In this document: in pieces, positions 2,322-57,417 of the stretch
Layout: each line of letters starts with the position of its first letter
Position numbering within the stretch: position 1 is the stretch's first letter
DNA from: Minisyncoccota bacterium
GTDB lineage: Bacteria; Patescibacteriota; Minisyncoccia; UBA6257; JAGOQP01
Assembly (NCBI GenBank): GCA_041661795.1
Contig: JBAZTS010000002.1
Location: 36,263-100,262, forward strand
Direction of reading: 5' to 3'
DNA length: 64,000 nt
Made by a program: the position numbers and the translations under genes
The notes under the pieces: model-generated
Database searches by the model: none
What the model was told of the DNA's origin: nothing
The model's input: the letters and a program-made list of their open reading frames with translations, nothing else

Positions 2322-2756
2322 ATGACTGTTTCCCTAAAACCAATAGTTATCTTTTTTGTTGTTGTATTTATCATCTATATACCCACAATGATTTTTCAGT
2401 GGTATGTAGATTTACCTTGGATTGATATCCCTTTGCACCTAATGGGTGGAGCTTGGGTAGCTTTGCTTTTCTTTCGTCTTTTTGGAGACCTGTTTTTTGA
2501 GAAACTCTATGAACACAAATATGAGGCGGCTAGAGTTTTAATTTTGGCTGTGGCCTTTAGTGTATTAATAGGAGTTTTTTGGGAATTCTTTGAATATCTA
2601 CTCACTCAATATACCCCCATTGAATTTCAAGGGAGCTTGACTGATACCATGGGAGATCTTTTAATGGATATATTAGGTTCTCTGGCTATGGCTTATTTTA
2701 TCCTTTTTTATCTTTTCCCCAAGAAGAGGCAGGTCGTCTCTCAATTAGAAGGATAA
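2322..2756 (+). CDS. Hypothetical integral membrane protein
   Basis: 144 aa, 4 predicted hydrophobic helices; no family recognised. Confidence 0.5.
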   Translation: MTVSLKPIVIFFVVVFIIYIPTMIFQWYVDLPWIDIPLHLMGGAWVALLFFRLFGDLFFEKLYEHKYEAARVLILAVAFSVLIGVFWEFFEYLLTQYTPIEFQGSLTDTMGDLLMDILGSLAMAYFILFYLFPKKRQVVSQLEG

Positions 2757-4019
2757 ATTAACTGAAGAAATCTTTCCTTCCTTAAGAAGATAAACAACTT
2801 CTTCTTCTTTGTCGTAAACCCAGGATCCCGGGTTATTTTTTATAGTAAACTTGTTGGCCGGCTTATATATACTTAGGTCTGAAATATCCAGAGTTTTTGA
2901 GGAATAATCTATAATGAAATGAAACGAATCATCAAGCCACTCAATCTGCTTGGTTTTTAGGGCGTCTATTATCTCAATTTTCATAATTTCTCCTTTTTTC
3001 TTTTCCAGTGTTACAATTTCGTCTTCAATAAAATAAATAAACGACTTTCCGTCTTTATCCTGATAAAACACTTTCTTTTCGTCAGGAGATATTTTAGCTG
3101 TTTTACCTGAGTGAGCCAATTGGAAAAAATTCTCATCTTTATTATTATAAAACCATATGCTTCCGTCTTTTAATATAAACAGTTGATAATTTTGACTGAC
3201 ATCAATGTTTTCTATTTGATTTCCGTTGAACGGGAGTTTTATTCTTCTGGTTTCTTCAATTAAATTCAAATCAGTGGTGGTGATAAAAGAGTCGGTTGAT
3301 GTGGAATTTTTTTGTTTTGTTGGTAATTCCACCAAATAAAGATTATTTCTTGCCACTGTCATTTTTTCTAAAATTCCCTCTTTTATTGTTTTAAAACTCT
3401 GTTTATTTATGTCTATCCAATAAATCCCCGTAGAAGTCCTGACTATAATTTTGTTTTCTTCTTGAGGATAAATACGAATGTCTTCTATTTTTTGTCTAAA
3501 AAAAGAGGATATTTTTGAATTAAGATTTATTATATTCGGACTATTTAGATTGTATAAGTAATAAATATTCTTTTGGTCGTCCAGAACAATGATTCTCTTA
3601 TCTTTTTTATCTAAAATAATATTTCCCTTAACGTTGTCGATTAATTGTTGTTCATCTATTTTTTGAGGAGCAAGTATGACATTGGAGATTCTGGCAACCT
3701 GAGAAGGGAAAACTTCTATATTTTTTTCATAATCAAGATATCCCTCCTTTTTTAATTCAAGGCGGTATTTTTTAGGCAAGACATTGGAGATTAAAGTCCC
3801 TTTTTGGATTAACCCTAAAGAACTGTCGTATTTTTTATCATTAAGGAATATATCCAAAGATCTTGGTTGCGCCTCAACATAAACAGCCCCAGTTTTAGTG
3901 GCGCTTAGAGTGGAGAAATCAAATCTATATCCTTGGGAATAATAAATAACCCCGGTTCCTATCAATAGGAAAATGACCAAAAAAGAGTAAAAAAGTTTTC
4001 TTCTGAATGGCAGAGTCAT
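2745..4019 (-). CDS. Hypothetical N-terminally anchored protein, PEGA-like segment near N-terminus
   Basis: N-terminal TM (FYSFLVIFLLIGTGVIY); YRLELKKEGYLDYEKNIEV resembles PEGA; remainder unassigned. Confidence 0.45.
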   Translation of the reverse strand: MTLPFRRKLFYSFLVIFLLIGTGVIYYSQGYRFDFSTLSATKTGAVYVEAQPRSLDIFLNDKKYDSSLGLIQKGTLISNVLPKKYRLELKKEGYLDYEKNIEVFPSQVARISNVILAPQKIDEQQLIDNVKGNIILDKKDKRIIVLDDQKNIYYLYNLNSPNIINLNSKISSFFRQKIEDIRIYPQEENKIIVRTSTGIYWIDINKQSFKTIKEGILEKMTVARNNLYLVELPTKQKNSTSTDSFITTTDLNLIEETRRIKLPFNGNQIENIDVSQNYQLFILKDGSIWFYNNKDENFFQLAHSGKTAKISPDEKKVFYQDKDGKSFIYFIEDEIVTLEKKKGEIMKIEIIDALKTKQIEWLDDSFHFIIDYSSKTLDISDLSIYKPANKFTIKNNPGSWVYDKEEEVVYLLKEGKISSVNLSF

Positions 4020-13387: not shown

Positions 13388-15280
13388 TTATTGTTCTATA
13401 CAGTAAAGTCTATTAGTCAAGTTGCATGCCTCAATACCAGTGTAAGCCCAGCCACCGATAGCAGTGTTGGTGTATCCATAAGCTCCGTATCCACCCGCAG
13501 AGTTAGTTGTCCAGTTTGAACAGTCACTTGCCCCCTTGTAAAGTCCGGTAAAATCAAAATCTGTCCATACATAATCATTAACAAGAGTTCCATTTTCATC
13601 ATACTCTACTTTATTCATTAGATAATTTGTGCCATCAAATCTTACCCACGGCATTACGTATGGAGAAGTTGTTGTTGCCAAGCTAGAATCGGCGACAACA
13701 TAACCACCCATATTAATTAAACGTATCCAGTTATATCCTATTGTTGTTATTGGTTCTACGGTTGTACTGTATTGTCCAATAATTGCCTCCCACGTTCCGC
13801 CTAAGCTAGCAGCGTTTGCTCGTGCCTGACACTTAGCATGAGCTCCAGAAACTCCACCAAGATTTCCGTCATATAGAGCGGATGTTACAAATACTCTTTT
13901 TGTGAGAGTTGTTGTTGCCGATCCAGAAGCAACAGCCGCGTCAACATAGGCCTTTGTAGTGGCATCGGAATCAGCTGTGGGAGCAGCTAAGTTGGTTAGT
14001 TTGTATGTCGGCGTTGCACCAGTAAGTTTTATATTACCTTTAACTTCAAGCGCTTCTGTTGGAAGAGTTGAAGAAGATAATCCTATCCCAACTTTTGAAT
14101 TAGTTAAGTCCAAAGTCAGTGTTGATGTATCGGATAAAACTTGATAACCGGCAATACAAGGATTTCCAAGACAGATGTCATCTGTAAGAAGAAATTGAAC
14201 ATTTTTTCTACCATAAAATATCATATCATTAAGGGAACTTACTGCCGAAGATGCTCTGCCAAACCACCCTACCGCATAACCTTCATCATCTTCATTGCCA
14301 AAAGAACTTTTTGCTCTACTGGATGAGAATCCATATTGTGGTTCCGATGATACTCCTTCTGCCCACCAATATCCAAAATTATAAGGAGCTCTTGCAGACA
14401 AAACTGATCCGGCCACATCCAGTTTCGCTTTATATGCTGCTGACGTTGATGTTCCTATAACAACTTTATCTCCACTATTACCAACGGTAAAAACAGAAGT
14501 GCTTGAAGCTTTTATTCCCCCTGCGGTTTCTAAACTATAAGACGGAGCTGTTGTGCCTATTCCCACATTTCCTTGCACAATAAGTCCGTTTGAAGGAGCT
14601 GTGCTAGCTCCGGCATATGAAGACCCGATAGCCGCGCCTCCTGCTACGTCCAATTTATTTATTAAAGTTGAAACCCCTATCCCAACGTTTCCGGAAAATG
14701 CAGCGTTCTTCCATCTGGTTGGATTTATTCCAACAGAATATGAGTTGTCCGTTCCGGGAAGCAAATCGGAATCAAATGTCGCTGCCGAAGCTCTGGAAAC
14801 AGCTGATCTCAAACTTCTTGTTACGTTATTTCCTCCAACGTCTTGAGCAGATGATAAAGCCAAATCAATTTGAACCACGTCTTTTCCGGGATATTGAGTT
14901 AACTTCTTAAATTCTAAAGAATCAACCACCACTTTTTCATTAGTAAGCGCTTGAGCTGAATTATTTCCTTCTCTTATGTAAATTTGTCCTCCAGAAAGAT
15001 AAATTGTGGATGTGGTCGTATCTTTCATTCTTAGAACTAAGGAATCAGTGCTGGCTCCCGCTCCTATTTCTATTACGCTGGACTCTTTAACTAATCTTTG
15101 AATGGTATTCATCACAAAATTCAATTGACCCGATAACTCATTTTCAGCAGATTGCTCGACTTGGGTTTTTGTTACCGTTGTCATTATGCCAGTAATAATT
15201 CCTGTAGATATTGCCAAAATACCCACATAAATAAGCACCTCGGTTAAAGTAAAACCTTTGTTTTGTTTGTAGATTCTCAT
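13388..15280 (-). CDS. Type IV pilin-like protein (class III signal GFTLTE) with fibre-like repeats and cysteine-containing lectin-like C-terminal domain
   Basis: N-terminus MRIYKQNKGFTLTEVLIYVGILAI; repeats of the GNVGIGTTAPS..KLDVAG type; C-terminal RVFVTSALYDGNLGG..GAHAKCQ domain (DUF1554-like, tentative). Confidence 0.6.
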   Translation of the reverse strand: MRIYKQNKGFTLTEVLIYVGILAISTGIITGIMTTVTKTQVEQSAENELSGQLNFVMNTIQRLVKESSVIEIGAGASTDSLVLRMKDTTTSTIYLSGGQIYIREGNNSAQALTNEKVVVDSLEFKKLTQYPGKDVVQIDLALSSAQDVGGNNVTRSLRSAVSRASAATFDSDLLPGTDNSYSVGINPTRWKNAAFSGNVGIGVSTLINKLDVAGGAAIGSSYAGASTAPSNGLIVQGNVGIGTTAPSYSLETAGGIKASSTSVFTVGNSGDKVVIGTSTSAAYKAKLDVAGSVLSARAPYNFGYWWAEGVSSEPQYGFSSSRAKSSFGNEDDEGYAVGWFGRASSAVSSLNDMIFYGRKNVQFLLTDDICLGNPCIAGYQVLSDTSTLTLDLTNSKVGIGLSSSTLPTEALEVKGNIKLTGATPTYKLTNLAAPTADSDATTKAYVDAAVASGSATTTLTKRVFVTSALYDGNLGGVSGAHAKCQARANAASLGGTWEAIIGQYSTTVEPITTIGYNWIRLINMGGYVVADSSLATTTSPYVMPWVRFDGTNYLMNKVEYDENGTLVNDYVWTDFDFTGLYKGASDCSNWTTNSAGGYGAYGYTNTAIGGWAYTGIEACNLTNRLYCIEQ

Positions 15281-15334
15281 ATGAGATTATTATATCACAA
15301 TGGTGATTTTTATTCACTAAGATTGTGGATAAAT

Positions 15335-15361
15335 CCCCACACTAATTCTATTAGTGTGGGG
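15335..15361. repeat. CCCCACACTAAT-N3-ATTAGTGTGGGG hairpin (family copy 2)
   Basis: 12-bp inverted repeat between lepB 3' end and pilin-like gene start. Confidence 0.5.
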
Positions 15362-15367
15362 ATAAAC

Positions 15368-16012: not shown

Positions 16013-18334
16013 ATGTTAAGCGACAATATACGCAATTTTTGTATTATAGCCCACATAGATCACGGCAAATCTACATTGGCTGATAGGTTGCTTGAAATTA
16101 CAGGAACTATAGATAAGAGGAAGATGAAGAACCAATATCTTGATCAATTGGAATTGGAAAGAGAAAGAGGGATAACTATCAAAATGGCTCCTGTCCGCAT
16201 GCTCTATGCGCTGACTAACGCCGACTCTACGCCGACTGACGCAGACAATAAGAAATTAGATAATGCGAGTAGTCAATTATTGTATGAAGATTTAACCTAT
16301 AAAATAAGAGGAGTGTTGTTTGGCGTAAAGAAAAAAATAGGACTTGGTCATAAAGAAGTTATTTACCAAAAGGCCATAGAAGAAGAATTGACAAAAGAGA
16401 ACATACCTTTTGAAAAAGAAAAAATAATTAATATAGAACTTGATAATAAAAGTCTTGGCGTATACAGACCAGATTTTGTTATTGATAATAAAATTATATT
16501 AGAGATAAAATCTTTGCCTTTTATTGGAGATGTTGAGAAAAGGCAAGTTTGGACATATCTTAAGGGATCAGAATATAAATTGGCTTTATTAGTCAATTTC
16601 AATTCTAGAGATATTGATATTAAAAGAGTTGTGTATGATACAGCCAGAGAAATTCAGCGTGAGTCAGCGTTTAGTCAGCGTAAGTCGGCGCAGGTTGAGC
16701 AGTATGTGCTCAACCTGATAGACACTCCCGGGCATCCGGATTTTGGTTATGAAGTTTCCAGAGCTTTGGAAGCGGTTGAGGGGGCAATTTTGTTGGTTGA
16801 TGGAATGCAAGGAATACAAGCACAAACGTTATCTAATTTTTATGCTGCCAAAAAAGCCGGACTTACAATTATTGGCGCGGTTAACAAAGTGGATTTAAAT
16901 ATTCCTGACATAGATAAAGTTGTAATGGAAACAGCGGAGCTAATTGGTTGTGGGCCAGAACAAATTCATAAAATATCAGGAAGAACAGGAGAGGGAGTTC
17001 AACAGCTTTTGGGAGCAGTTATTCTTAGAATCCTACCTCCAAAAGCTGTAATTCCCAATTTCCAATTCCCAATTTCCAATTTTGGAAGGGCATTAATATT
17101 TGATTCTTTTTATGACGACCACAAAGGAATTATAGCCAGTGTCAGGGTATTTAATGGAGAATTTAATCAGTTTGATGATGTGGTTTTGGTGGCTGCTAAA
17201 GAAAAATTTAAAACAAAAGAAGTCGGATATTTTTCTCCGACCCTAAATCCTTCAAAAAGAATTTTAGAGGGAGAGATAGGTTATTTGGTTACCGGGATAA
17301 GAGACCCGTATAAAATAAAAATCGGTGACACGGTAATAGGTCACAAATCACAAGTCGCGCATCACGAATCGTATGCTTTGCCCGGATACAAAGAACCAAA
17401 GCCGGTGGTGTTTGTTTCTTTCTATCCAGACAATCCGGATGAATATGATGATTTAAAAAAATCTTTGGAAAGATTAAAGCTTAACGACTCTTCTTTTGCT
17501 TTTGAGCCGGATTTAAATGAAGTGTTGGGCAGGGGATTTAAAGGAGGATTTTTGGGAAAGCTTCATTTTGAAATAATTTCTCAGCGTCTTGAAAGAGAGT
17601 TTGGAATAAAAACAATCACATCTTTTCCTTCGGTCAGTTATAAAATAAAAACTTCTTCCAAACACTTAGCTCATCTAAAATTGGACGAAGATGGATTTTT
17701 CATAGCGTATAATCCCAAAGATATTCCTGAAGAATTTGAAAAGATATTAGAACCGATGATAAAAGTTGAAATTGTTTCATCACAAAAAATATTGGGAACA
17801 GTTTTGGGACTTAAAGATGCTTTTCGTTGGGAATACATAGAGACCCAACAATTGGGAGAAAAAGTTATTATTAAAACCAGAATGCCCTTGGCTGAGCTTA
17901 TCTCGGATTTTGACGACCAGTTAAAATCGGTTTCAGGTGGATTTGCTTCTTTTAGTTATGAAGAAGACGGCTATCAACAGGGCGATTTAATTAGGATGGA
18001 TATTTTAGTGGCAGACGAAATAGTTCCTGGGCTTTCTAGAATTCTTCCCAAAAAAGACATAGAATATCCGGCCAGGAAAATGGTTGTTCGCTTAAAGGAA
18101 GTATTGCCTCATCAGCAATTTACCCAAGCTATTCAAGCCAAAGTCGGAGGGAGAATTATAGCCAGAGAAACTATTGCGGCTTTAAGAAAAGATGTGACCG
18201 GATATCTTTATGGAGGAGACAGAACAAGAAAAATGAAACTTTGGAAAAAACAGCAAAGAGGCAAAAAGAAACTTCTTTCTATGGCCAAAGTGACCATATC
18301 TCCAGAAAACTTCAAGAAACTTCTTTCAAAATAA
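16013..18334 (+). CDS. lepA: Elongation factor 4 (LepA) carrying an in-frame ~167-aa GxxExxY-domain insertion in the G domain
   Basis: AHIDHGKST ... [insertion] ... DTPGHPDF, NKVDL, LepA C-terminal domain; 773 aa vs ~600 typical. Confidence 0.9.
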   Translation: MLSDNIRNFCIIAHIDHGKSTLADRLLEITGTIDKRKMKNQYLDQLELERERGITIKMAPVRMLYALTNADSTPTDADNKKLDNASSQLLYEDLTYKIRGVLFGVKKKIGLGHKEVIYQKAIEEELTKENIPFEKEKIINIELDNKSLGVYRPDFVIDNKIILEIKSLPFIGDVEKRQVWTYLKGSEYKLALLVNFNSRDIDIKRVVYDTAREIQRESAFSQRKSAQVEQYVLNLIDTPGHPDFGYEVSRALEAVEGAILLVDGMQGIQAQTLSNFYAAKKAGLTIIGAVNKVDLNIPDIDKVVMETAELIGCGPEQIHKISGRTGEGVQQLLGAVILRILPPKAVIPNFQFPISNFGRALIFDSFYDDHKGIIASVRVFNGEFNQFDDVVLVAAKEKFKTKEVGYFSPTLNPSKRILEGEIGYLVTGIRDPYKIKIGDTVIGHKSQVAHHESYALPGYKEPKPVVFVSFYPDNPDEYDDLKKSLERLKLNDSSFAFEPDLNEVLGRGFKGGFLGKLHFEIISQRLEREFGIKTITSFPSVSYKIKTSSKHLAHLKLDEDGFFIAYNPKDIPEEFEKILEPMIKVEIVSSQKILGTVLGLKDAFRWEYIETQQLGEKVIIKTRMPLAELISDFDDQLKSVSGGFASFSYEEDGYQQGDLIRMDILVADEIVPGLSRILPKKDIEYPARKMVVRLKEVLPHQQFTQAIQAKVGGRIIARETIAALRKDVTGYLYGGDRTRKMKLWKKQQRGKKKLLSMAKVTISPENFKKLLSK
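16202..16702 (+). mobile_element. In-frame insertion within lepA encoding a complete GxxExxY-family PD-(D/E)XK domain, flanked by GC-rich AGTC(A/G)GCG-octamer inverted repeats
   Basis: DLTYKIRG...GHKEVIY...PDFVIDNKIILEIKS...LALLVNFN matches GxxExxY family; arms 16218-16262 and 16655-16700. Confidence 0.55.
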
Positions 18335-18349
18335 TTTTTATTTGTGTCT

Positions 18350-18450
18350 TTTTTTAAATAAGCTTTAGGAAAGATTTTGAGGCCATGCGGAAGACGGCGG
18401 TCTGAGCTAGAGGGATTTTTCAGCAGAAAAATACCCGTGCCTAAAAATTT
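18350..18450 (+). repeat. ~95-nt conserved intergenic element (copy A), candidate 5' leader/ncRNA; inverted copy at 46835-46930
   Basis: Near-identical core GAGGGATTTTTCAGCAGAAAAATACCCGTGCC shared with reverse complement of 46835-46930. Confidence 0.5.
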
Positions 18451-18472
18451 TTTCTAAAGCGGATTAGTATTA

Positions 18473-46817: not shown

Positions 46818-46834
46818 GGGTTTTATTATTTCGT

Positions 46835-46930
46835 TTCAGAAAAGGTTTTGGGGCACGGGTATTTTTCTGCTGAAAAATCCCTCAAGCTCAGCCCGTCGGC
46901 TTCCGCACGGTCCCAAAACCTTTTCTAAAA
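46835..46930 (-). repeat. ~95-nt conserved intergenic element (copy B, minus orientation), in 5' leader of DUF192 gene
   Basis: Reverse complement matches 18373-18450 with the GGGATTTTTCAGCAGAAAAATACCC hairpin core. Confidence 0.5.
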
Positions 46931-46955
46931 CTACAAATATGTTAAAATCATTATT

Positions 46956-51178: not shown

Positions 51179-52666
51179 ATGACTAAGTATATTAAATCTA
51201 AATTAAATAGTTGCTTTTCTTATCCCGATATACGGTCTACGGTTTACAGTTCCCGTTCCTTCACCCTTGTAGAACTCCTCGTCGTCATAGGTATCCTAGC
51301 AGTCCTTACTACAGCAGTCGTTATCATCCTCAATCCTGCTGATTATCTTGCTCAATCTCGTGACTCTAGAAGAATGAATGACCTCTCTCTCCTCAATAAC
51401 TCTCTCCAGAACTTAGAAGCCATAGACCCTACCATATCTTTTGGAACATCTCTTACCGTCTATATCTCCATCCCAGACGATGCTTCTTCTACCTGTGGAA
51501 CCTTAGGATTACCCAATCTTTCTTCAGGATATACATATAACTGTGTCTCTACAGCTAATCTCACCAAAACAGATGGTACAGGTTGGGTTCCTGTCAACTT
51601 TACTACTCAATCTATTGTTCAATTATCTGCTCTTCCTATAGATCCTACTAATACCCCTACAGATGGACTTTATTATACATATACTCCTGGAGGGAGTTGG
51701 CATCTAAGATCTATTCTTGAATCATCTAAATATCAATCCAAAGCTCTAAACGATGGAGGCACATCAGACAACGCCTTTGAAACAGGAACGAACATGGCTC
51801 TTGCTCCAGCAGTATTCCCCAACAACTGGATAAAGGTTCCCGGAAGCTCCACATACAATACCTCTGATTTTTGGGTTATGAAGTATGAGGCCAAGTATGA
51901 CAAGGATAATGATGGAAAAGGAGATGCAACATCATATTGTAGATACGGTGGTTATAATTCAATTTCTATTGGTTGTGTTACTGGTGGCAGTTTTATATCC
52001 TCAGCTTATGGTTTTCCTGTTGCTACCGCTTATTCTGCTTCTGACGCTAACAATGCCTGTTCTTCTACCGGTGCTCATCTTGTTACAAATAACGAATGGA
52101 TGACGATCGCCAGAAATGTAGAACAAGTTGATTCCAACTGGACAGGCGGTTCTGTTGGTTCCGGAAAATTATTTATTGGCAACTATGGTTATTGTTATGG
52201 AGTTAGTAATTGCTATACCTTTAGTGGCACGTTTCAAGATTATGGAACTAATAGAAACTCAAGAGCAAAGTTGACTCTTTCCAATAAGGAAGAAATATAT
52301 GACTTTTCTGGTAATATGGCCGAAAATGTAAAACTCGGATCTTCTTTTGCTATTACCGAAGCAAATCATCCGGATGCGATCAGTATAGGAGATTGGGCCA
52401 ATAATGATTTTTTATCTCTTACTAGTTATGGAGATTTTTCTTCTTATGATAATCTAGGACCATCTGATGACTCATGGACTAATGCCAGTCAAGGAGTTGG
52501 ATATATGTATCATTGCGATGGATGTTCTTCTGGTGGCGCCTCAACAATAATTAGAGGAGGATCAGTTGATTCTCAAGCCGCTGGAGCTCCTGGAATATAT
52601 ACGATTCGTCTGCGTTATATAGGTGGCGATTATAATGCTTATAGTGGTTTTCGCTGCGCTAAATAA
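51179..52666 (+). CDS. Type IV pilin-like protein with C-terminal FGE-sulfatase (SUMF1)-like lectin domain
   Basis: N-terminal SFTLVELLVVIGILAVL prepilin-type motif; AHLVTNNEWMTIAR and IIRGGSV...IRLRY...GFRCAK FGE-domain signatures. Confidence 0.65.
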   Translation: MTKYIKSKLNSCFSYPDIRSTVYSSRSFTLVELLVVIGILAVLTTAVVIILNPADYLAQSRDSRRMNDLSLLNNSLQNLEAIDPTISFGTSLTVYISIPDDASSTCGTLGLPNLSSGYTYNCVSTANLTKTDGTGWVPVNFTTQSIVQLSALPIDPTNTPTDGLYYTYTPGGSWHLRSILESSKYQSKALNDGGTSDNAFETGTNMALAPAVFPNNWIKVPGSSTYNTSDFWVMKYEAKYDKDNDGKGDATSYCRYGGYNSISIGCVTGGSFISSAYGFPVATAYSASDANNACSSTGAHLVTNNEWMTIARNVEQVDSNWTGGSVGSGKLFIGNYGYCYGVSNCYTFSGTFQDYGTNRNSRAKLTLSNKEEIYDFSGNMAENVKLGSSFAITEANHPDAISIGDWANNDFLSLTSYGDFSSYDNLGPSDDSWTNASQGVGYMYHCDGCSSGGASTIIRGGSVDSQAAGAPGIYTIRLRYIGGDYNAYSGFRCAK

Positions 52667-54618: not shown

Positions 54619-54628
54619 AATTTTCTGC

Positions 54629-54658
54629 CACCTTTTTGGTCAGAAAAAGGTGGCGCCA
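54629..54658 (-). promoter_or_regulatory. 12-bp-stem hairpin in uvrB 5' UTR containing the only SD-like AAGGTGG
   Basis: gccaccttttt ggtcag aaaaaggtggc 9 nt upstream of uvrB ATG. Confidence 0.4.
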
Positions 54659-54842
54659 AAACTGACAACCCTGTATATCCTCTCAAACAAATGAAACAAA
54701 TATCTCGCTTTGTCTTGAACTCGTATCTGCTATACTCACACACTCAAGACACTAAAAGCTCATATTTGCTTTATTTGTTAGTGTTCGGACATACGGGTTG
54801 ATATTTAGCTAATAATAGCCCTAAATCTAGTGTTTGTTAATA

Positions 54843-54871
54843 TTGACTTATTAGTAATAATATGATATACT
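54843..54871 (+). promoter_or_regulatory. Near-consensus sigma70 promoter (TTGACT-N17-TATACT) driving GC-rich gene
   Basis: Hexamers and spacing; ~90 nt upstream of 54963 ATG. Confidence 0.45.
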
Positions 54872-54962
54872 CAAAACAAGTTTCGAAACCGCTTCACTGC
54901 CGTGAACAACACTACAGAAAGAGCGGTCGGAGCACTGCTCTTTCACAGAAAGGGGAACTTCG

Positions 54963-55361
54963 ATGAGTGGGATCGCTTGGTTTTTCGAGGTGTTCGCTCT
55001 GCTGTTTTTCGTGGGGACTCTGGGCGTTGCTTTCATCGGACGCCGCATCCTCAAGGCGGAGCAGGAGTCGTCGGTTCTGATGTCTTTCCTCCAGATCTGC
55101 AGTGGAGCGCTCTTCATCTTCTACGTTTTCGGACTGGGTCAACTCATGGCTCTGTCTGGACTGGAAGGTGCAAGGGCGCCCCGGTGGCTGATTCCGGGCA
55201 CCTACATCACTCTCACCATCTTCAGCGCGTTGACTCGGCTGGCTCTTCCAAGGTGGGGCAGTGACAACAAAGCGATGCAACTCTGGAGTGTCGTCAGCGT
55301 CCTGACGTTCCTACTCGGCACGTTCTGCCTCGGGGCGTACTCGTCCAACTACTTCGAGTAG
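54963..55361 (+). CDS. GC-anomalous (foreign-looking) 4-TM membrane protein, unknown function
   Basis: 132 aa, GC3-rich codons in an AT-rich genome, AGGGGA RBS, own terminator. Confidence 0.6.
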   Translation: MSGIAWFFEVFALLFFVGTLGVAFIGRRILKAEQESSVLMSFLQICSGALFIFYVFGLGQLMALSGLEGARAPRWLIPGTYITLTIFSALTRLALPRWGSDNKAMQLWSVVSVLTFLLGTFCLGAYSSNYFE

Positions 55362-55385
55362 GTCTCCTTCTTCAGCTCTTCAACT

Positions 55386-55421
55386 GGCGGCGTCTCTCAC
55401 GAGGCGCCGCACTGCTTTTTA
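55386..55421. terminator. Bidirectional terminator (gcggcgtctc tcac gaggcgccgc + T-run)
   Basis: GC stem between GC-rich gene and uvrC 3' end. Confidence 0.6.
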
Positions 55422-55467
55422 TATGGTTATAAAATTTATATAAATTTCCCCGTCAATATAAATCCGC

Positions 55468-56607
55468 TTAATCGGTATATGTCCGTGACCGACGTAGTCG
55501 GTGGTATCGTATAGCAAATCTGTGGGCTTCGTTTCTTAACGAAAGTAATGTATTTTTAACATCTTCGGGGATTTGGCTCAAGCTGATAGGGGATTTTGAA
55601 TAGGGACTGTAAATCAATCCTTTTGTTTGTGATCTTTTATATTTCTTGCCAACATCGTTAATTAACTTACCATTACAATTAGAACGATCGTTGTAATTGT
55701 AATGGTGTGGATTATTACCCACAGATTGCAATTTGCCCACGTTTAGTTTTGCTAGAGCTATCATCGGAATCTTAATTGTTTTGAGTTGTGAGATTTGTGA
55801 TTTTCCTCCGTCAATGATAATTAAATCCGGATATTTCCATTCTTTGTGGTTAAGGCGTCTTTCTATAATTTCTTTTATTGAAGCCGGGTCATTGGCTCCT
55901 TTTATCGTTTTTATTTTAAATTTTCTGTAAAGATTTTTATTAGGTTTATTTCCGATAAACGTTACCATTGAGCCAACTGACAAACTACCTTGGGTATTGG
56001 AAATGTCGTAGCACTCAATATGTGTTTTTTCTCCATTATATAAACGAAGAAAAGTTTTTAATCCATTAACCACCTGGATGTATTTTTTTACTTCGATATT
56101 ATGAGCGGAACATAACCCTAAGTGATAATACAAGCACGGCTTTTCCGGTTTATTTTTACATGTGCGATAGGGGAATATTCTTCTGATTATCAATAAGAGA
56201 TGCTTAATCTCTTTTGCGTCTACAAACGGGCCAACAAAATCGGCTTTAAATTTTTTTGTTTGGTGTGTTAAAAGCACTCTGGGGTACTTTTCGTCGGTAA
56301 AAGCTATATACAAAAAATCCTTGTCATCTTTAAGTTCAATGTTATATTTTGGCTGATACTGTCTAACTAATTTTCTTTCTAAAATCAAGGCGTCTTTTTC
56401 AGATGGGGTTTCTATAAAATCTAAGTCAGCTACTTGTTTGTAAAAATTAATAGAAGCATTCTCTTGTCTAGAAAAATGCGATTCTATTCTCTTTTTTATA
56501 TTAATAGCTTTTCCGATATACAAAATCTTCTCATTCTTATCTTTGAAAATATATACTCCCGGTTTCTTAGGAAGTGCTTTTATCTTATTCTTCAGGATTG
56601 TTTTCAC
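55468..56607 (-). CDS. uvrC: Excinuclease ABC subunit C, short form lacking C-terminal (HhH)2 region; GTG start; contains in-frame palindrome insertion
   Basis: GIY-YIG PGVYIFKDKNEKILYIGKA, UvrC Cys-region, RNEAHRFAIRYHR motif near C-terminus; 379 aa vs ~600 typical. Confidence 0.8.
   Translation of the reverse strand: MKTILKNKIKALPKKPGVYIFKDKNEKILYIGKAINIKKRIESHFSRQENASINFYKQVADLDFIETPSEKDALILERKLVRQYQPKYNIELKDDKDFLYIAFTDEKYPRVLLTHQTKKFKADFVGPFVDAKEIKHLLLIIRRIFPYRTCKNKPEKPCLYYHLGLCSAHNIEVKKYIQVVNGLKTFLRLYNGEKTHIECYDISNTQGSLSVGSMVTFIGNKPNKNLYRKFKIKTIKGANDPASIKEIIERRLNHKEWKYPDLIIIDGGKSQISQLKTIKIPMIALAKLNVGKLQSVGNNPHHYNYNDRSNCNGKLINDVGKKYKRSQTKGLIYSPYSKSPISLSQIPEDVKNTLLSLRNEAHRFAIRYHRLRRSRTYTD
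55670..55705. repeat. 36-bp palindrome copy 1 (CCATTACAATTAGAACGATCGTTGTAATTGTAATGG) inside uvrC coding sequence, in-frame
   Basis: One mismatch from perfect symmetry; translated as ...YNYNDRSNCNGKLIN... Confidence 0.6.
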
Positions 56608-56645
56608 TGTTTTTTTATTTTTATCCTTATCTTAATCTTAATCTA

Positions 56646-56681
56646 CCATTACATTTAGAACGATCGTTCTAAATGTAATGG
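56646..56681. repeat. 36-bp perfect palindrome copy 2 (CCATTACATTTAGAACGATCGTTCTAAATGTAATGG), 39 nt upstream of uvrC start and abutting PaaX-like gene stop
   Basis: Perfect symmetry with symmetric A/T change relative to copy 3. Confidence 0.6.
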
Positions 56682-56684
56682 TGG

Positions 56685-57245
56685 CTAGATTTTCTTTATA
56701 GTCCCCATTTTTCCTATTTCCAATATCTCCACGTATTCGTTTATTCTCATTTTTTCTAAATCTTCCACAAACTTTTTAGGAATTTTTATTTTTCCTATCC
56801 AGACACTTTTTTGCAACATTTCAAATCCAATATTCTTTACAGCTGATCTTAACCAAGCCCTCTTCCTTTTAAATTTTTCCGGAACATCAAAAGCTATCAA
56901 AATAACATTGTTTCCGGCTTCTTTCTTATAATCTAAAGCTGGAGATTGATTATTGGATACCCGGTTAATAAGTTTTTTGGCTTTTTTAGTAATCTTGATA
57001 ATCAACCCCTCTTTTTGTTCTATGAGTCCGTCTTTCTTAAGACGATAAATCATTACCCTATATCTGTTTCTTATTTTTTCTTTCTCTGTTTTGATAGTCT
57101 CATTTTTAGTGCCGATTCTATTTAAATTGTCTCTTAATATAGACGTTGAGCCCCAAGAGAATAAAAACGCTTCAAAAGCATTAGAGTATGTTTGTCTATC
57201 TACATTATTTAGAAAACTTATTGTTTCTCTATTTCTTGCCCTCAT
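56685..57245 (-). CDS. PaaX-like transcriptional regulator (wHTH + PaaX middle-domain-like fold)
   Basis: RLKKDGLIEQKEG wHTH; VILIAFDVPEKFKRKRAWLRSAVKNIGFEMLQKSVWIGKIKIP matches PaaX W..LV.S.PE..R..R..LR..L...GFG.LQ.SVWI. Confidence 0.55.
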   Translation of the reverse strand: MRARNRETISFLNNVDRQTYSNAFEAFLFSWGSTSILRDNLNRIGTKNETIKTEKEKIRNRYRVMIYRLKKDGLIEQKEGLIIKITKKAKKLINRVSNNQSPALDYKKEAGNNVILIAFDVPEKFKRKRAWLRSAVKNIGFEMLQKSVWIGKIKIPKKFVEDLEKMRINEYVEILEIGKMGTIKKI

Positions 57246-57270
57246 AACAATATTATATCATCATTTATTA

Positions 57271-57306
57271 CCATTACAATTAGAACGATCGTTCTAATTG
57301 TAATGG
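57271..57306. promoter_or_regulatory. 36-bp perfect palindrome copy 3 overlapping putative leaderless promoter (TTGTAA-N16-TATAAT) of PaaX-like gene
   Basis: CCATTACAATTAGAACGATCGTTCTAATTGTAATGG; TATAAT 6 nt before the ATG. Confidence 0.5.
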
Positions 57307-57417
57307 AGGGAGTATATATGATTAAGAATATTAAATAATTATCATAGAGTTATTATGATTATAGATTGATTTTATCGTTTTAATTAAAGAGTGCCTTATA
57401 AATTAGCACGGACCGCT

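Follow-up and report, generated by a model that had tools for sequence, protein, structure and literature searches.

A modular type IV pilin-like protein from Paceibacteria combines a pilin head, a tail-fibre-like stalk and an endostatin-like end domain

Introduction

Modular pilins, in which a pilin module is joined to at least one module that is not pilus-specific (sensu Raynaud et al., 2021), are widespread and have been proposed to be located at the pilus tip (PMC8179133). In S. sanguinis, the modular type IV pilins PilB and PilC end in vWA or ConA-lectin modules, with a short loop joining the pilin and vWA modules of PilB (PMC8179133). The minor pilin CofB of enterotoxigenic E. coli, which has additional beta-rich domains, is a homotrimer and is predicted to reside at the pilus tip (PMC8179133). 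Amongst the Patescibacteria, the Saccharibacteria minor pilins PilX1 and PilX2, both encoded in pilus loci, possess C-terminal accessory domains described as lectin-like, i.e., a beta-propeller in PilX2 and another beta-rich domain in PilX1; without PilX2, filaments are still extruded, but host binding is no longer efficient (PMC11623550).

A second group of relevance comprises the mosaic adhesive trimer (MAT) fibres of Bdellovibrio bacteriovorus, which were shown by crystallography to be trimeric and which carry exchangeable adhesive tips (Caulton et al., 2024; PMC10769870). These proteins, about 1000 aa long, consist of a signal peptide, a conserved ~130-aa beta-rich domain and a beta-helical fibre, along which a capping-loop motif, V-G-G/N-pi-x-x-P-x-x-x-L, is repeated (PMC10769870). 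Pilin heads and Patescibacteria do not figure in the MAT paper or its supplements (PMC10769870), and a literature search for “mosaic adhesive” together with “pilin” yielded no relevant co-mention.

Here, we describe a gene from an ultrasmall bacterium of the Paceibacteria (Patescibacteria/CPR), the product of which combines a pilin head, a tail-fibre-like stalk and an endostatin-like end domain, and which is thus a modular pilin in the above sense. Whereas PilB has a short loop, this protein has a fibre-type stalk of ~290 residues, and its tip resembles endostatin and is neither a vWA nor a ConA-lectin module. It also differs from PilX1 and PilX2, which lack a fibre stalk, and its gene lies amongst housekeeping genes. 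Modular pilins are already known as a kind and the protein is already in databases; the value here lies in its annotation and a testable hypothesis, not in a system of a new kind.

Gene and protein

The gene occupies positions 13388..15280 of the minus strand (stop codon, 13388-13390) in the window, i.e., the whole 64,000-nucleotide stretch of DNA analyzed; all parts of the gene described below are on the same strand. In the ORF list it encodes a 630-aa modular type IV pilin-like protein, and the mature ORF product has a computed mass of ~65 kDa and a pI of 4.8. The start is unambiguous, since only two codons separate the upstream stop from the ATG. The initial annotation had read this ORF as a giant pilin-like protein with a class III signal, fibre-type repeats and a DUF1554-like C-terminal domain. 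The ORF is real and all three observations held, but “giant” went too far: a length of 630 aa, though considerable for a pilin, is near the family median of 566 aa. An identical protein (P0001) is present in four public sources and on contigs of two samples, under the names “DUF1554 domain-containing protein [Ca. Paceibacterota]” (NCBI) and “pseudopilin PulG” (JGI).

Class III signal, pilin head and neck

The protein begins with a nine-residue leader, MRIYKQNKG (15254..15280), followed by FTLTEVLIYVGILAIS (FTLTEVLIYVGILAISTGIITGIM). This places Gly at -1, Phe at +1 and Glu at +5, so that a short basic leader precedes ~20 hydrophobic residues, as in class III signals. Pfam N_methyl matched aa 5-29 with 23.2 bits (cut-off, 21.2), in support of the proposed signal and pilin head, and removal of the leader by prepilin peptidase is predicted to occur after Gly9. 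The NCBIfam model TIGR02532 (IV_pilin_GFxxxE) scored below its cut-off (13.4 versus 16.3 bits), the motif being nonetheless present. Of the 222 family proteins, 192 bear the same signal motif; position -1 is Gly in 165 of these and Ala in the other 27. Glu+5 is at least 90% conserved across the family alignment.

The head itself (aa 10-165; 14786..15253) has the pilin fold, with a long N-terminal helix packed on an antiparallel beta-sheet. The hydrophobic alpha-1 helix, which includes F10 and E14, runs to aa ~66, the sheet spans aa 80-162, and the globular part comprises aa 41-165. Searches with the head matched 646 clusters (50% identity) at E <= 1e-3, of which 472 also passed E <= 1e-10; amongst the best 150 of the matched clusters, the match begins near the N-terminus and protein lengths range from 184 to 1930 aa. 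The head is followed by a neck (aa 166-196, AATFDSDLLPGTDNSYSVG..RWKNAAFS; 14693..14785), which is the most conserved stretch of the family. Across 111 sequences, F169 and G184 are invariant, and A166, A167, T168, D170, P175 and W190 are at least 90% conserved. The neck is common to 112 of the 120 top homologues, and its identity to pilin-headed homologues was 61-76% in a region-wise comparison.

The T2SS pseudopilins GspJ, XcpW and EpsJ were amongst the head matches, and NCBIfam returned weak matches to ComGE, ComGF and GspH. A ComEC gene (DUF4131 + Competence) is located some 6 kb outside the window, on the side of its start. These observations would suit a role as minor pilin in a competence (DNA-uptake) pilus or T2SS-like pseudopilus, with the fibre and tip capturing DNA or other cargo instead of host cells. 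However, the NCBIfam matches are far under their cut-offs and confined to the N-terminal helix, and the recognizable stalk and tip elements all come from surface-recognition proteins, i.e., MAT fibres, phage tail fibres and, amongst DUF1554 proteins, the Len adhesins. Furthermore, the acidic tip is ill suited to DNA binding, and tip swapping amongst close relatives fits variable targets but not DNA. We therefore consider a role in DNA or cargo uptake improbable.

Fibre-type stalk and junction

The stalk (aa 166-456) contains two strong (aa ~195-220 and ~236-259) and two degenerate (aa ~272-293 and ~395-420) copies of the motif GNVGIGTTxPxxKLxVxG. The first three repeats, identified by motif position and profile, lie within aa 197-299 (14384..14692) and read GNVGIGVSTLINKLDVAG, GNVGIGTTAPSYSLETAG and, in the degenerate copy, KVVIGTSTSAAYKAKLDVAG. 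A 26-residue repeat profile, built from homologues with the query's own unit left out, matched the ORF with an E-value of 7.5e-18, copies 1 and 2 scoring 26.4 and 34.6 bits, respectively; no other stop-to-stop segment of the window gave a match below E 2. When the family repeat profile was compared with the PDB, the only matches were to Bdellovibrio MAT trimeric fibres, in five chains (8ond, 4.6e-18; 8oml, 9e-10; 8ojn and 8on4, 1e-5; 8ol4, 6e-4). The stalk thus carries the repeated MAT capping-loop motif, in two strong and two weak copies. It is short in comparison with the MAT proteins, and the N-terminal layout differs from their published description in that a class III signal and an alpha/beta pilin head stand in place of the signal peptide and beta-rich domain.

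The third and fourth repeats are separated by an insert (aa 300-392; 14105..14383) that is rich in W, Y and S, acidic (pI 4.1) and contains Cys370 and Cys375. It is common to only four of the 120 top homologues and was modelled by AF2 with pLDDT <50. The view that the middle of the protein is built of repeats was therefore correct in part: repeats are present, but aa 41-165 form the globular head and aa 300-392 the insert. The degenerate fourth repeat (aa 393-420, SKVGIGLSSSTLPTEALEVKGNIKLTG; 14021..14104) was placed by motif position and profile, and AF2 gave short strands with pLDDT 73-81 over aa 391-420. No Pfam family covers the stalk, three fragments of which, including the insert, yielded nothing meaningful at E <= 10. 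AF2 was run on the monomer only and gave a pLDDT mostly <50 across the stalk; an obligate oligomer could give such a low-confidence model, which is, however, no proof of oligomerization. A Foldseek search with the full-length model returned nothing significant.

The last part of the stalk is a junction (aa 421-456; 13913..14020) with the motif KLTNLAAPTADSDATTKAYVDAA, after which the tips of homologues diverge. The motif, with the consensus I.N..P....DAATK.YVDAA, occurs once in each of 39 of the family proteins fetched, upstream of the last module, and junction identities are 41-74%, whereas the tips turn unrelated. In the PDB, the junction profile matched the phage tail fibres gp9 (23sh, 1.4e-12) and gp47 (8vbx, 6e-6), a cyanophage fibre (8i4m, 2e-3) and, at about 1e-11, a capsule depolymerase and a tailspike (9m4c and 9m4d). 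Thus, the proposal of fibre-type repeats found support from two sides, the repeats leading to MAT fibres and the junction to phage tail fibres and tailspikes.

The junction motif is common to phage proteins. Many homologues go by the name “tail fiber domain-containing protein” and possess Peptidase_S74, a domain described for trimeric phage spikes (PMC10769870) that ends 23 of the 120 top homologues. On these grounds, the gene might be a phage-derived tail fibre gene, i.e., a prophage remnant or recent transfer that is pilin-like at the N-terminus only. Against this, the gene is flanked by housekeeping genes and holds a syntenic position in five genomes, no repeats flank it and its GC content is unremarkable. 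A PHROG search matched only the N-terminal helix, to families of unknown function, with no tail-fibre family and no match over the stalk, and the similarity to phage tail fibres and tailspikes is limited to the ~30-aa junction motif. A phage origin is thus most improbable, and prophage origin was rejected on gene context.

The DUF1554 tip

The tip (aa 457-630; 13391..13912) is an acidic, aromatic-rich DUF1554 domain of the endostatin fold. Pfam DUF1554 (PF07588; IPR011448 is presumably the same family) matched aa 469-606 with 36 bits, above its cut-off of 27.5, and the match extends over profile positions 3-135 of 136. This profile match, together with four conserved cysteines (Cys484, Cys587, Cys619 and Cys627), substantiates the C-terminal domain that had been put forward as DUF1554-like. 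The NCBIfam equivalog model for LenA/LenB (NF047482) scored 30.4 bits against a cut-off of 300, with only the DUF1554 part aligned. The tip is therefore a domain relative of Leptospira LenA-F and not a Len orthologue.

The fold is also that of the endostatin domains of collagens XV and XVIII, relative to which the tip model contains two low-confidence loop insertions (model residues 51-60 and 81-100). Vertebrate endostatin possesses N-terminal zinc-binding histidines and a basic heparin-binding surface. By composition, neither feature is found in the tip, which has a single His, 9 K+R against 14 D+E and a pI of 4.6, making a zinc site and a basic heparin-binding surface unlikely. Endostatin ligands are thus not transferable to this protein.

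Mosaicism and tip exchange

Homologues were placed in two separate alignments, a combined alignment of full-length homologues and short DUF1554 proteins having misaligned the short ones (11-20% identity). By region-wise identities, the family is mosaic. The homologue P0002 is 63% identical in the head and 43% in the tip, whereas in P0007, which shares the head (62%) and junction (65%), the tip is unrelated. P0111, which starts with a Sec-type signal and lacks the pilin head, is 62% identical in the junction and 52% in the tip; a stalk and tip behind a Sec-type signal were also found in P0113. Many different C-terminal Pfam domains occur amongst the homologues. The gene order lepA, S26 peptidase, pilin-fibre gene, secA (the middle two in the same direction) is kept in five related genomes, and at this one locus the tip is DUF1554 in two genomes and an unrelated Cys-rich domain, with no Pfam family and no PDB sequence match, in the other three. 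The swapping of C-terminal binding domains suggested by the initial annotation is thus borne out by mosaic identities, by varied end domains and by replacement at a syntenic locus.

The occurrence of the same stalk and tip behind a Sec-type signal implies that a pilus is not required for fibre function. It favours a reading in which the protein acts as a surface fibre anchored in the membrane and does not enter a pilus at any stage, with the class III signal, cleaved or not, serving for export and N-terminal anchoring, and the trimer projecting through the envelope like a MAT fibre or a trimeric adhesin. Consistent with this, pilus genes are absent near the gene in all five syntenic genomes, Bdellovibrio MAT fibres act at the cell surface without pili (PMC10769870), and a homotrimer is hard to fit into a one-start helical filament. 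We nevertheless regard a fibre without a pilus as rather unlikely.

Genomic context and a second pilin-like gene

The flanking genes (secA, lepB-like, lepA, pgk and murB) have housekeeping functions. Prepilin peptidase, PilB/C/M/N/O and other pilus machinery genes were absent from the ~84 kb inspected of the 156-kb contig, which comprised the large ORFs of the window and the annotations 10 kb past its end and about 7 kb before its start. This result, the TIGR02532 score and the Sec-type homologues are observations that run counter to a pilus assignment; the low-confidence stalk model, the Foldseek result and the lack of PHROG and Pfam families for the stalk also weigh against the model given below.

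The initial annotation had paired the gene with a second pilin-like gene at 51179-52666 as one family of adhesins. This pairing failed, since the two products share the N-terminal helix only (29% identity over 66 aa). The protein encoded at 51179-52666 differs in its head, lacks fibre repeats and ends in a domain of an FGE-sulfatase-type family. The two are accordingly different modular pilins rather than paralogues. A diversity-generating retroelement acting on 13388-15280 was also rejected, as no template-like repeat was found for either pilin gene; no repeat of at least 40 nt involves 13388-15280, and the window ORFs, as scanned or annotated, include no reverse transcriptase. An Rfam search of a GC-rich gap at 54.6-55.5 kb gave no match.

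A model for function

We favour the reading, at a probability of roughly 55%, that the product of 13388-15280 is a modular minor type IV pilin located at the pilus tip, where it would bind the surface of a host, probably as a homotrimer. The domain identities, the mosaicism across the family and the replacement of the tip at the syntenic locus were observed, whereas cleavage, pilus incorporation, tip position, trimer state, ligand and adhesive role are inferred. In this model, prepilin peptidase would strip the 9-residue leader from the preprotein, and the hydrophobic alpha-1 helix of the GspJ-like head would keep it membrane-anchored pending uptake by the pilus machinery. The bulky 465-residue extension and the minor-pilin-type head speak for incorporation at the tip of the filament and against a place in its shaft. 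Three copies would then form one intertwined fibre in the order of 10 nm long, a rough scaling from Bd2133 (about 370 residues for ~14 nm). A trimer is probable in that every recognizable stalk element (MAT capping-loop repeats, phage tailspike junction) comes from homotrimeric fibres, and the S74 chaperone carried by 23 of the 120 homologues lends indirect support. The three alpha-1 helices might cap or prime the pilus, as proposed here by analogy with the CofB trimer. Tip pilins of the CofB/TcpB type (type IVb) are the closest precedent for a pilin-borne trimeric fibre; the likeness is mechanistic only, no sequence or fold match to CofB having been seen. At the distal end, three endostatin-fold DUF1554 domains would bind a surface molecule of a host or partner cell, and exchange of the tip between lineages at the conserved junction motif would retarget the fibre.

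More tentatively, many Patescibacteria may possess a homotrimeric fibre of the MAT/phage type in which a GspJ-like pilin head has taken the place of the N-terminal domain. Three helices would cap a type IV pilus, the retractable filament would present a receptor-binding module resembling that of phage tail fibres, and the tip cassette after DAATK.YVDAA, swapped amongst close relatives at a fixed chromosomal locus, would set the host cell to which the episymbiont attaches. If true, the arrangement would parallel, in bacteria, the way in which phages switch host range by exchanging tail-fibre tips.

Most Patescibacteria are uncultivated and their host recognition is largely unexplained; to our knowledge, every cultivated member lives attached to other microbes. 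The gene at 13388-15280 is a concrete candidate for a receptor-binding protein, and its parts are resolved. The family to which it belongs numbers at least 472 clusters (50% identity); head, neck and junction are conserved throughout, but the binding end is swapped, in close relatives even at a single syntenic locus. The gene also joins four lines of work that are usually separate, i.e., modular pilins, Bdellovibrio MAT fibres, phage tail-fibre junctions and endostatin/DUF1554 domains. Should tip type track host identity, such genes could serve to predict the partners of uncultured Patescibacteria from metagenomes.

Upstream region

The gene possibly has its own promoter, as read from the sequence: an extended -10 element, TGaTATAAT (15289..15297, minus strand), ends 8 nt upstream of the ATG. 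No Shine-Dalgarno sequence was seen between the two, such that transcription from this element would give a leaderless or near-leaderless mRNA. A consensus promoter scan of the gap 15281-15367, in which both hexamers were required, reported nothing. A strong -10 element of its own might be expected of a major, shaft-forming subunit of a thick decorated pilus, and large major pilins are known, e.g., Myxococcus PilA. Given the bulk of the extension and the type of head, we consider such a subunit highly unlikely. Finally, a hairpin with an 11-bp stem (CCCCACACTAA/TTAGTGTGGGG) and a 5-nt loop (15335..15361, minus strand) lies directly after the upstream S26 signal peptidase gene; it was missed by the terminator scan because of its poor T-run, and may act as a weak terminator.

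A modular protein with a minor-pilin head

The open reading frame at 13388..15280 (minus strand, 630 codons) is a real gene of a member of the Patescibacteria (CPR), situated in a window of low GC content (32-41%) that carries the housekeeping genes of a small-genome bacterium. Only two codons separate the upstream stop from its ATG. The protein was already deposited and partly annotated: the identical 630-aa sequence is present in public collections as 'MAG: DUF1554 domain-containing protein [Candidatus Paceibacterota bacterium]' (NCBI) and as 'type II secretory pathway pseudopilin PulG' (JGI), and is also encoded on an ENA contig of 156 kb and, in a second sample, on a Logan contig. By reading the upstream sequence, we located a hairpin at 15335-15361 (minus strand), 3' of the S26 peptidase gene, and an extended -10 element, TGaTATAAT, at 15289-15297 (minus strand), ending 8 nt 5' of the ATG; neither was called by a consensus scan. 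Given this -10 element and the lack of a Shine-Dalgarno sequence between it and the ATG, the gene may be transcribed from a promoter of its own into a leaderless mRNA.

The initial annotation had proposed a class III signal at the N-terminus. This was confirmed by a 9-residue basic leader with a terminal Gly (MRIYKQNKG), followed by FTLTEVLIYVGILAISTGIITGIM with Phe+1, Glu+5 and an extended run of hydrophobic residues, and by a match to Pfam N_methyl above cut-off (23.2 vs 21.2 bits). NCBIfam TIGR02532 scored below its cut-off (13.4 vs 16.3), and the NCBIfam ComG and GspH equivalogs matched the helix only, far under theirs. When the full-length protein was modelled with AlphaFold2 (111 aligned homologues), confidence was high over aa 11-160 (block means 88-98) and poor for the remainder, with a helix at 12-66 placed before a beta-sheet at 80-162. 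No significant Foldseek match was obtained with this whole-protein model. In the head comparison major pilins scored no higher than 5.3, so the head is a module of the minor-pilin/pseudopilin type.

Modular pilins are a described kind of protein. We take the InterPro number in Dataset S1 of Raynaud to be that of DUF1554. The pilin plus Peptidase_S74 architecture is tabulated in that dataset (PMC8179133), and the pilin plus DUF1554 architecture is probably there too.

The stalk combines fibre repeats with a phage-type junction

The fibre-type repeats proposed for the middle of the protein were borne out. Their motif occurs four times in the stalk, which spans aa 166-456, at aa 197, 237, 272 and 395, as two strong copies (26 and 35 bits) and two degenerate ones, and 402 times among the 120 best homologues (consensus sGNVGIGTT.P..kLdV.G). 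A profile of 101 units, from which the query's own were left out, matched the 13388..15280 frame at E 7.5e-18; every other stop-to-stop segment in the window scored E 2 or worse. Searched against all PDB sequences, the repeat-type profile retrieved five chains only, all of them mosaic adhesive trimer (MAT) fibre proteins of Bdellovibrio bacteriovorus, i.e., 8ond/Bd2133 (E 4.6e-18), 8oml (E 9e-10), 8ojn and 8on4 (both E 1e-5) and 8ol4 (E 6e-4). MAT fibres are intertwined homotrimeric beta-prisms with exchangeable adhesive tips and a capping-loop motif, V-G-G/N-pi-x-x-P-x-x-x-L (Caulton et al., PMC10769870); pilins and Patescibacteria are unmentioned in that paper and its supplements.

Neither Pfam nor PHROG has a family that covers the stalk. 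Its repeats 3 and 4 are separated by an acidic, W/Y/S-rich insert of 93 residues with two cysteines, common to only 4 of the 120 best homologues. Directly before the tip lies a junction, KLTNLAAPTADSDATTKAYVDAA, found once in each of 39 of the fetched family proteins, N-terminal to the last module. Its profile matched phage proteins in the PDB: tail fibre gp9 (23sh; 1.4e-12), a capsule depolymerase and a tailspike (9m4c and 9m4d; ~1e-11), tail fibre gp47 (8vbx; 6e-6) and a cyanophage fibre (8i4m; 2e-3), with weaker matches to phage hyaluronidases and trimeric autotransporter fragments.

The tip is an endostatin-like DUF1554 domain

The C-terminal domain (aa 457-630), previously suggested to be DUF1554-like, scored above the Pfam DUF1554 cut-off (36 vs 27.5 bits), and each of its four cysteines is either invariant across the family or conserved at 90% or above. 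A separate AlphaFold2 model of the tip (89 aligned domain homologues) was confident, with a pLDDT of 89.4 and a pTM of 0.87. In the PDB, the domain-family profile matched only the endostatins of collagens XVIII and XV (E 2e-16 to 2e-13). The alignment pairs all four cysteines, including a C-terminal CxE that reads CIE in both the tip and endostatin. As the tip is acidic (pI 4.6) and Trp- and Tyr-rich, with one His, the ligands of vertebrate endostatin are not simply transferable to it. For the characterized DUF1554 members, the Leptospira Len proteins, the ligands are laminin, fibronectin and complement regulators (PMC2063517); orthology of the tip to Len was rejected (30 bits vs a cut-off of 300).

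Tips are exchanged within a large mosaic family

Amongst the 120 best full-length matches, the head was common to 109, the neck to 112 and the first repeats to 77, the last repeat plus junction to 18 and the DUF1554 tip to five. Precomputed C-terminal Pfam domains in this set comprised Peptidase_S74, in 23 proteins, as well as Laminin_G_3, Gly_rich_2, Kelch, C1q, Collar, dockerin, YadA head and others. Searching exhaustively with aa 30-196, which cover the globular head and the neck, yielded 646 clusters (50% identity) at E <= 1e-3, 472 of them at E <= 1e-10; in the 150 best listed, proteins of 184-1930 aa, the alignment begins near the N-terminus. The class III motif was present in 192 of 222 fetched members. 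Region-wise identities to the query form a mosaic: the homologous protein P0002 is 63% identical in the head, 76% in the neck, 65% in the junction and 43% in the tip (DUF1554), and P0007 has similar values (62%, 76% and 65%) up to an unrelated Cys-rich tip that matched nothing in Pfam or the PDB. A third homologue, P0111, has a Sec-type signal and no head, no neck value, and identities of 62% in the junction and 52% in the tip.

Five genomes share one gene order, i.e., pgk ... lepA, a divergent S26 signal peptidase gene, the pilin-fibre gene and a convergent secA (the short contig of homologue P0009 stops just 3' of the pilin-fibre gene, before secA). The tip at this locus is DUF1554 in the window genome and GCA_026419535.1, and the Cys-rich domain in GCA_900175145.1, GCA_025999395.1 and GCA_964354445.1. 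The tip has therefore been replaced at one orthologous locus, and the earlier proposal of swappable C-terminal domains is upheld by this replacement, the mosaic identities and the varied Pfam domains. Searchable literature yielded no description of syntenic tip replacement, of a phage-type junction as exchange point, or of the stalk identified with Bdellovibrio MAT fibres.

Two neighbouring genes also differ between these relatives. Next to murB, two syntenic relatives carry very large genes with Flg_new_2 (PF18998) repeats, of 812 aa (locus L006, 17907-20346, truncated where the contig ends) and 1330 aa (locus L007, 16618-20610); the window genome has no large Flg_new_2 gene there and a 204-aa GtrA-like gene instead. 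Close to the pilin-fibre gene there is thus a further locus at which surface proteins vary. The LepA (EF4) gene at 16013-18334 (plus strand) contains an in-frame PD-(D/E)XK_3 (PF13366) nuclease-like domain (aa 93-206) inside its GTPase domain. The domain is also found in the syntenic LepA of GCA_026419535.1 and GCA_900175145.1 but is absent from those of GCA_025999395.1 (625 aa) and GCA_964354445.1 (602 aa), a patchy presence that suggests a mobile, non-intein insertion.

Pilus tip or membrane-anchored fibre

The best-supported reading is that the 13388..15280 product is a modular minor pilin of the type described by Raynaud et al. (PMC8179133). We infer that it is cleaved and assembled, its head positioning it at the pilus tip. 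Given that the stalk elements all derive from homotrimeric fibres, the protein is probably a homotrimer, like CofB, and its three endostatin-like domains would bind a surface molecule on another cell. A minor pilin of Saccharibacteria, PilX2, also carries an accessory domain at its C-terminus, and efficient host binding depends on PilX2 (PMC11623550).

As the main rival reading, the protein would be a surface fibre anchored in the membrane and never built into a pilus. This reading stays alive because P0111 bears the same fibre behind a Sec signal and because the gene adjoins none for pilus assembly, for a prepilin peptidase or for another pilin; the same pilus genes were absent from the window's large ORFs and from annotations to 10 kb past the window end and ~7 kb past its start. 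However, the complete globular pilin domain is strongly conserved, which argues against this rival. The sole competence- or pilus-related gene seen in the ~84 kb inspected encodes a ComEC-type DNA-uptake channel (DUF4131 plus Competence; contig L004, 21183-21275), ~6 kb beyond window position 1 on the same contig.

The other modular pilin belongs to a different family

The gene at 51179..52666 (plus strand) also scored above the N_methyl cut-off, with Ser at position -1 of its class III motif. The initial annotation had grouped it with 13388..15280 in one family. This grouping fails, since the two share only the N-terminal helix (29% over 66 aa), the repeat profile found no fibre repeats in 51179..52666, and its C-terminal 291 residues belong to another, large family (723 matches). 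Most of the 120 matches listed have an N_methyl plus FGE-sulfatase architecture; the protein itself reached only E 0.079 against the Pfam FGE-sulfatase model. It is a modular pilin of a different family. The FGE-sulfatase domain has a C-type-lectin-like fold, one that diversity-generating retroelements often use. The protein ends in ...YSGFRCAK, and several homologue clusters have many near-identical members (26, 21 and 56); neither a template repeat nor a reverse transcriptase was seen within the window.

Other features of the window

An element of ~100 nt occurs at 18361-18469 (plus strand) and 46824-46932 (minus strand), the copies being 83% identical. It folds into a single structure that has a long stem and two internal hairpins (-40 kcal/mol, 35 pairs), four of the pairs being preserved through changes on both sides between the two copies, and matched no Rfam family; we regard it as a candidate for an unnamed structured RNA. 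A 424-aa ORF at 2745-4019 (minus strand), without a Pfam or NCBIfam match, is conserved between the contigs from the two samples. Between uvrB and uvrC lies a relatively GC-rich (~0.41), gene-free gap of ~850 nt (54619-55467), in which spurious-looking ORFs overlap on both strands and neither an Rfam match at E <= 1 nor a tRNA was found. Finally, a 46-nt palindromic repeat with a TTACCATTACAATTAGAACGATCGTTCTAATTGTAATGG core is present at 55662-55707, 56638-56683 and 57263-57308. One copy lies within the uvrC ORF, and two tightly flank a small gene at 56685-57245 (minus strand) with a PaaX_M/Cas2-like domain, which together with its flanking palindromes may be a small inserted cassette.
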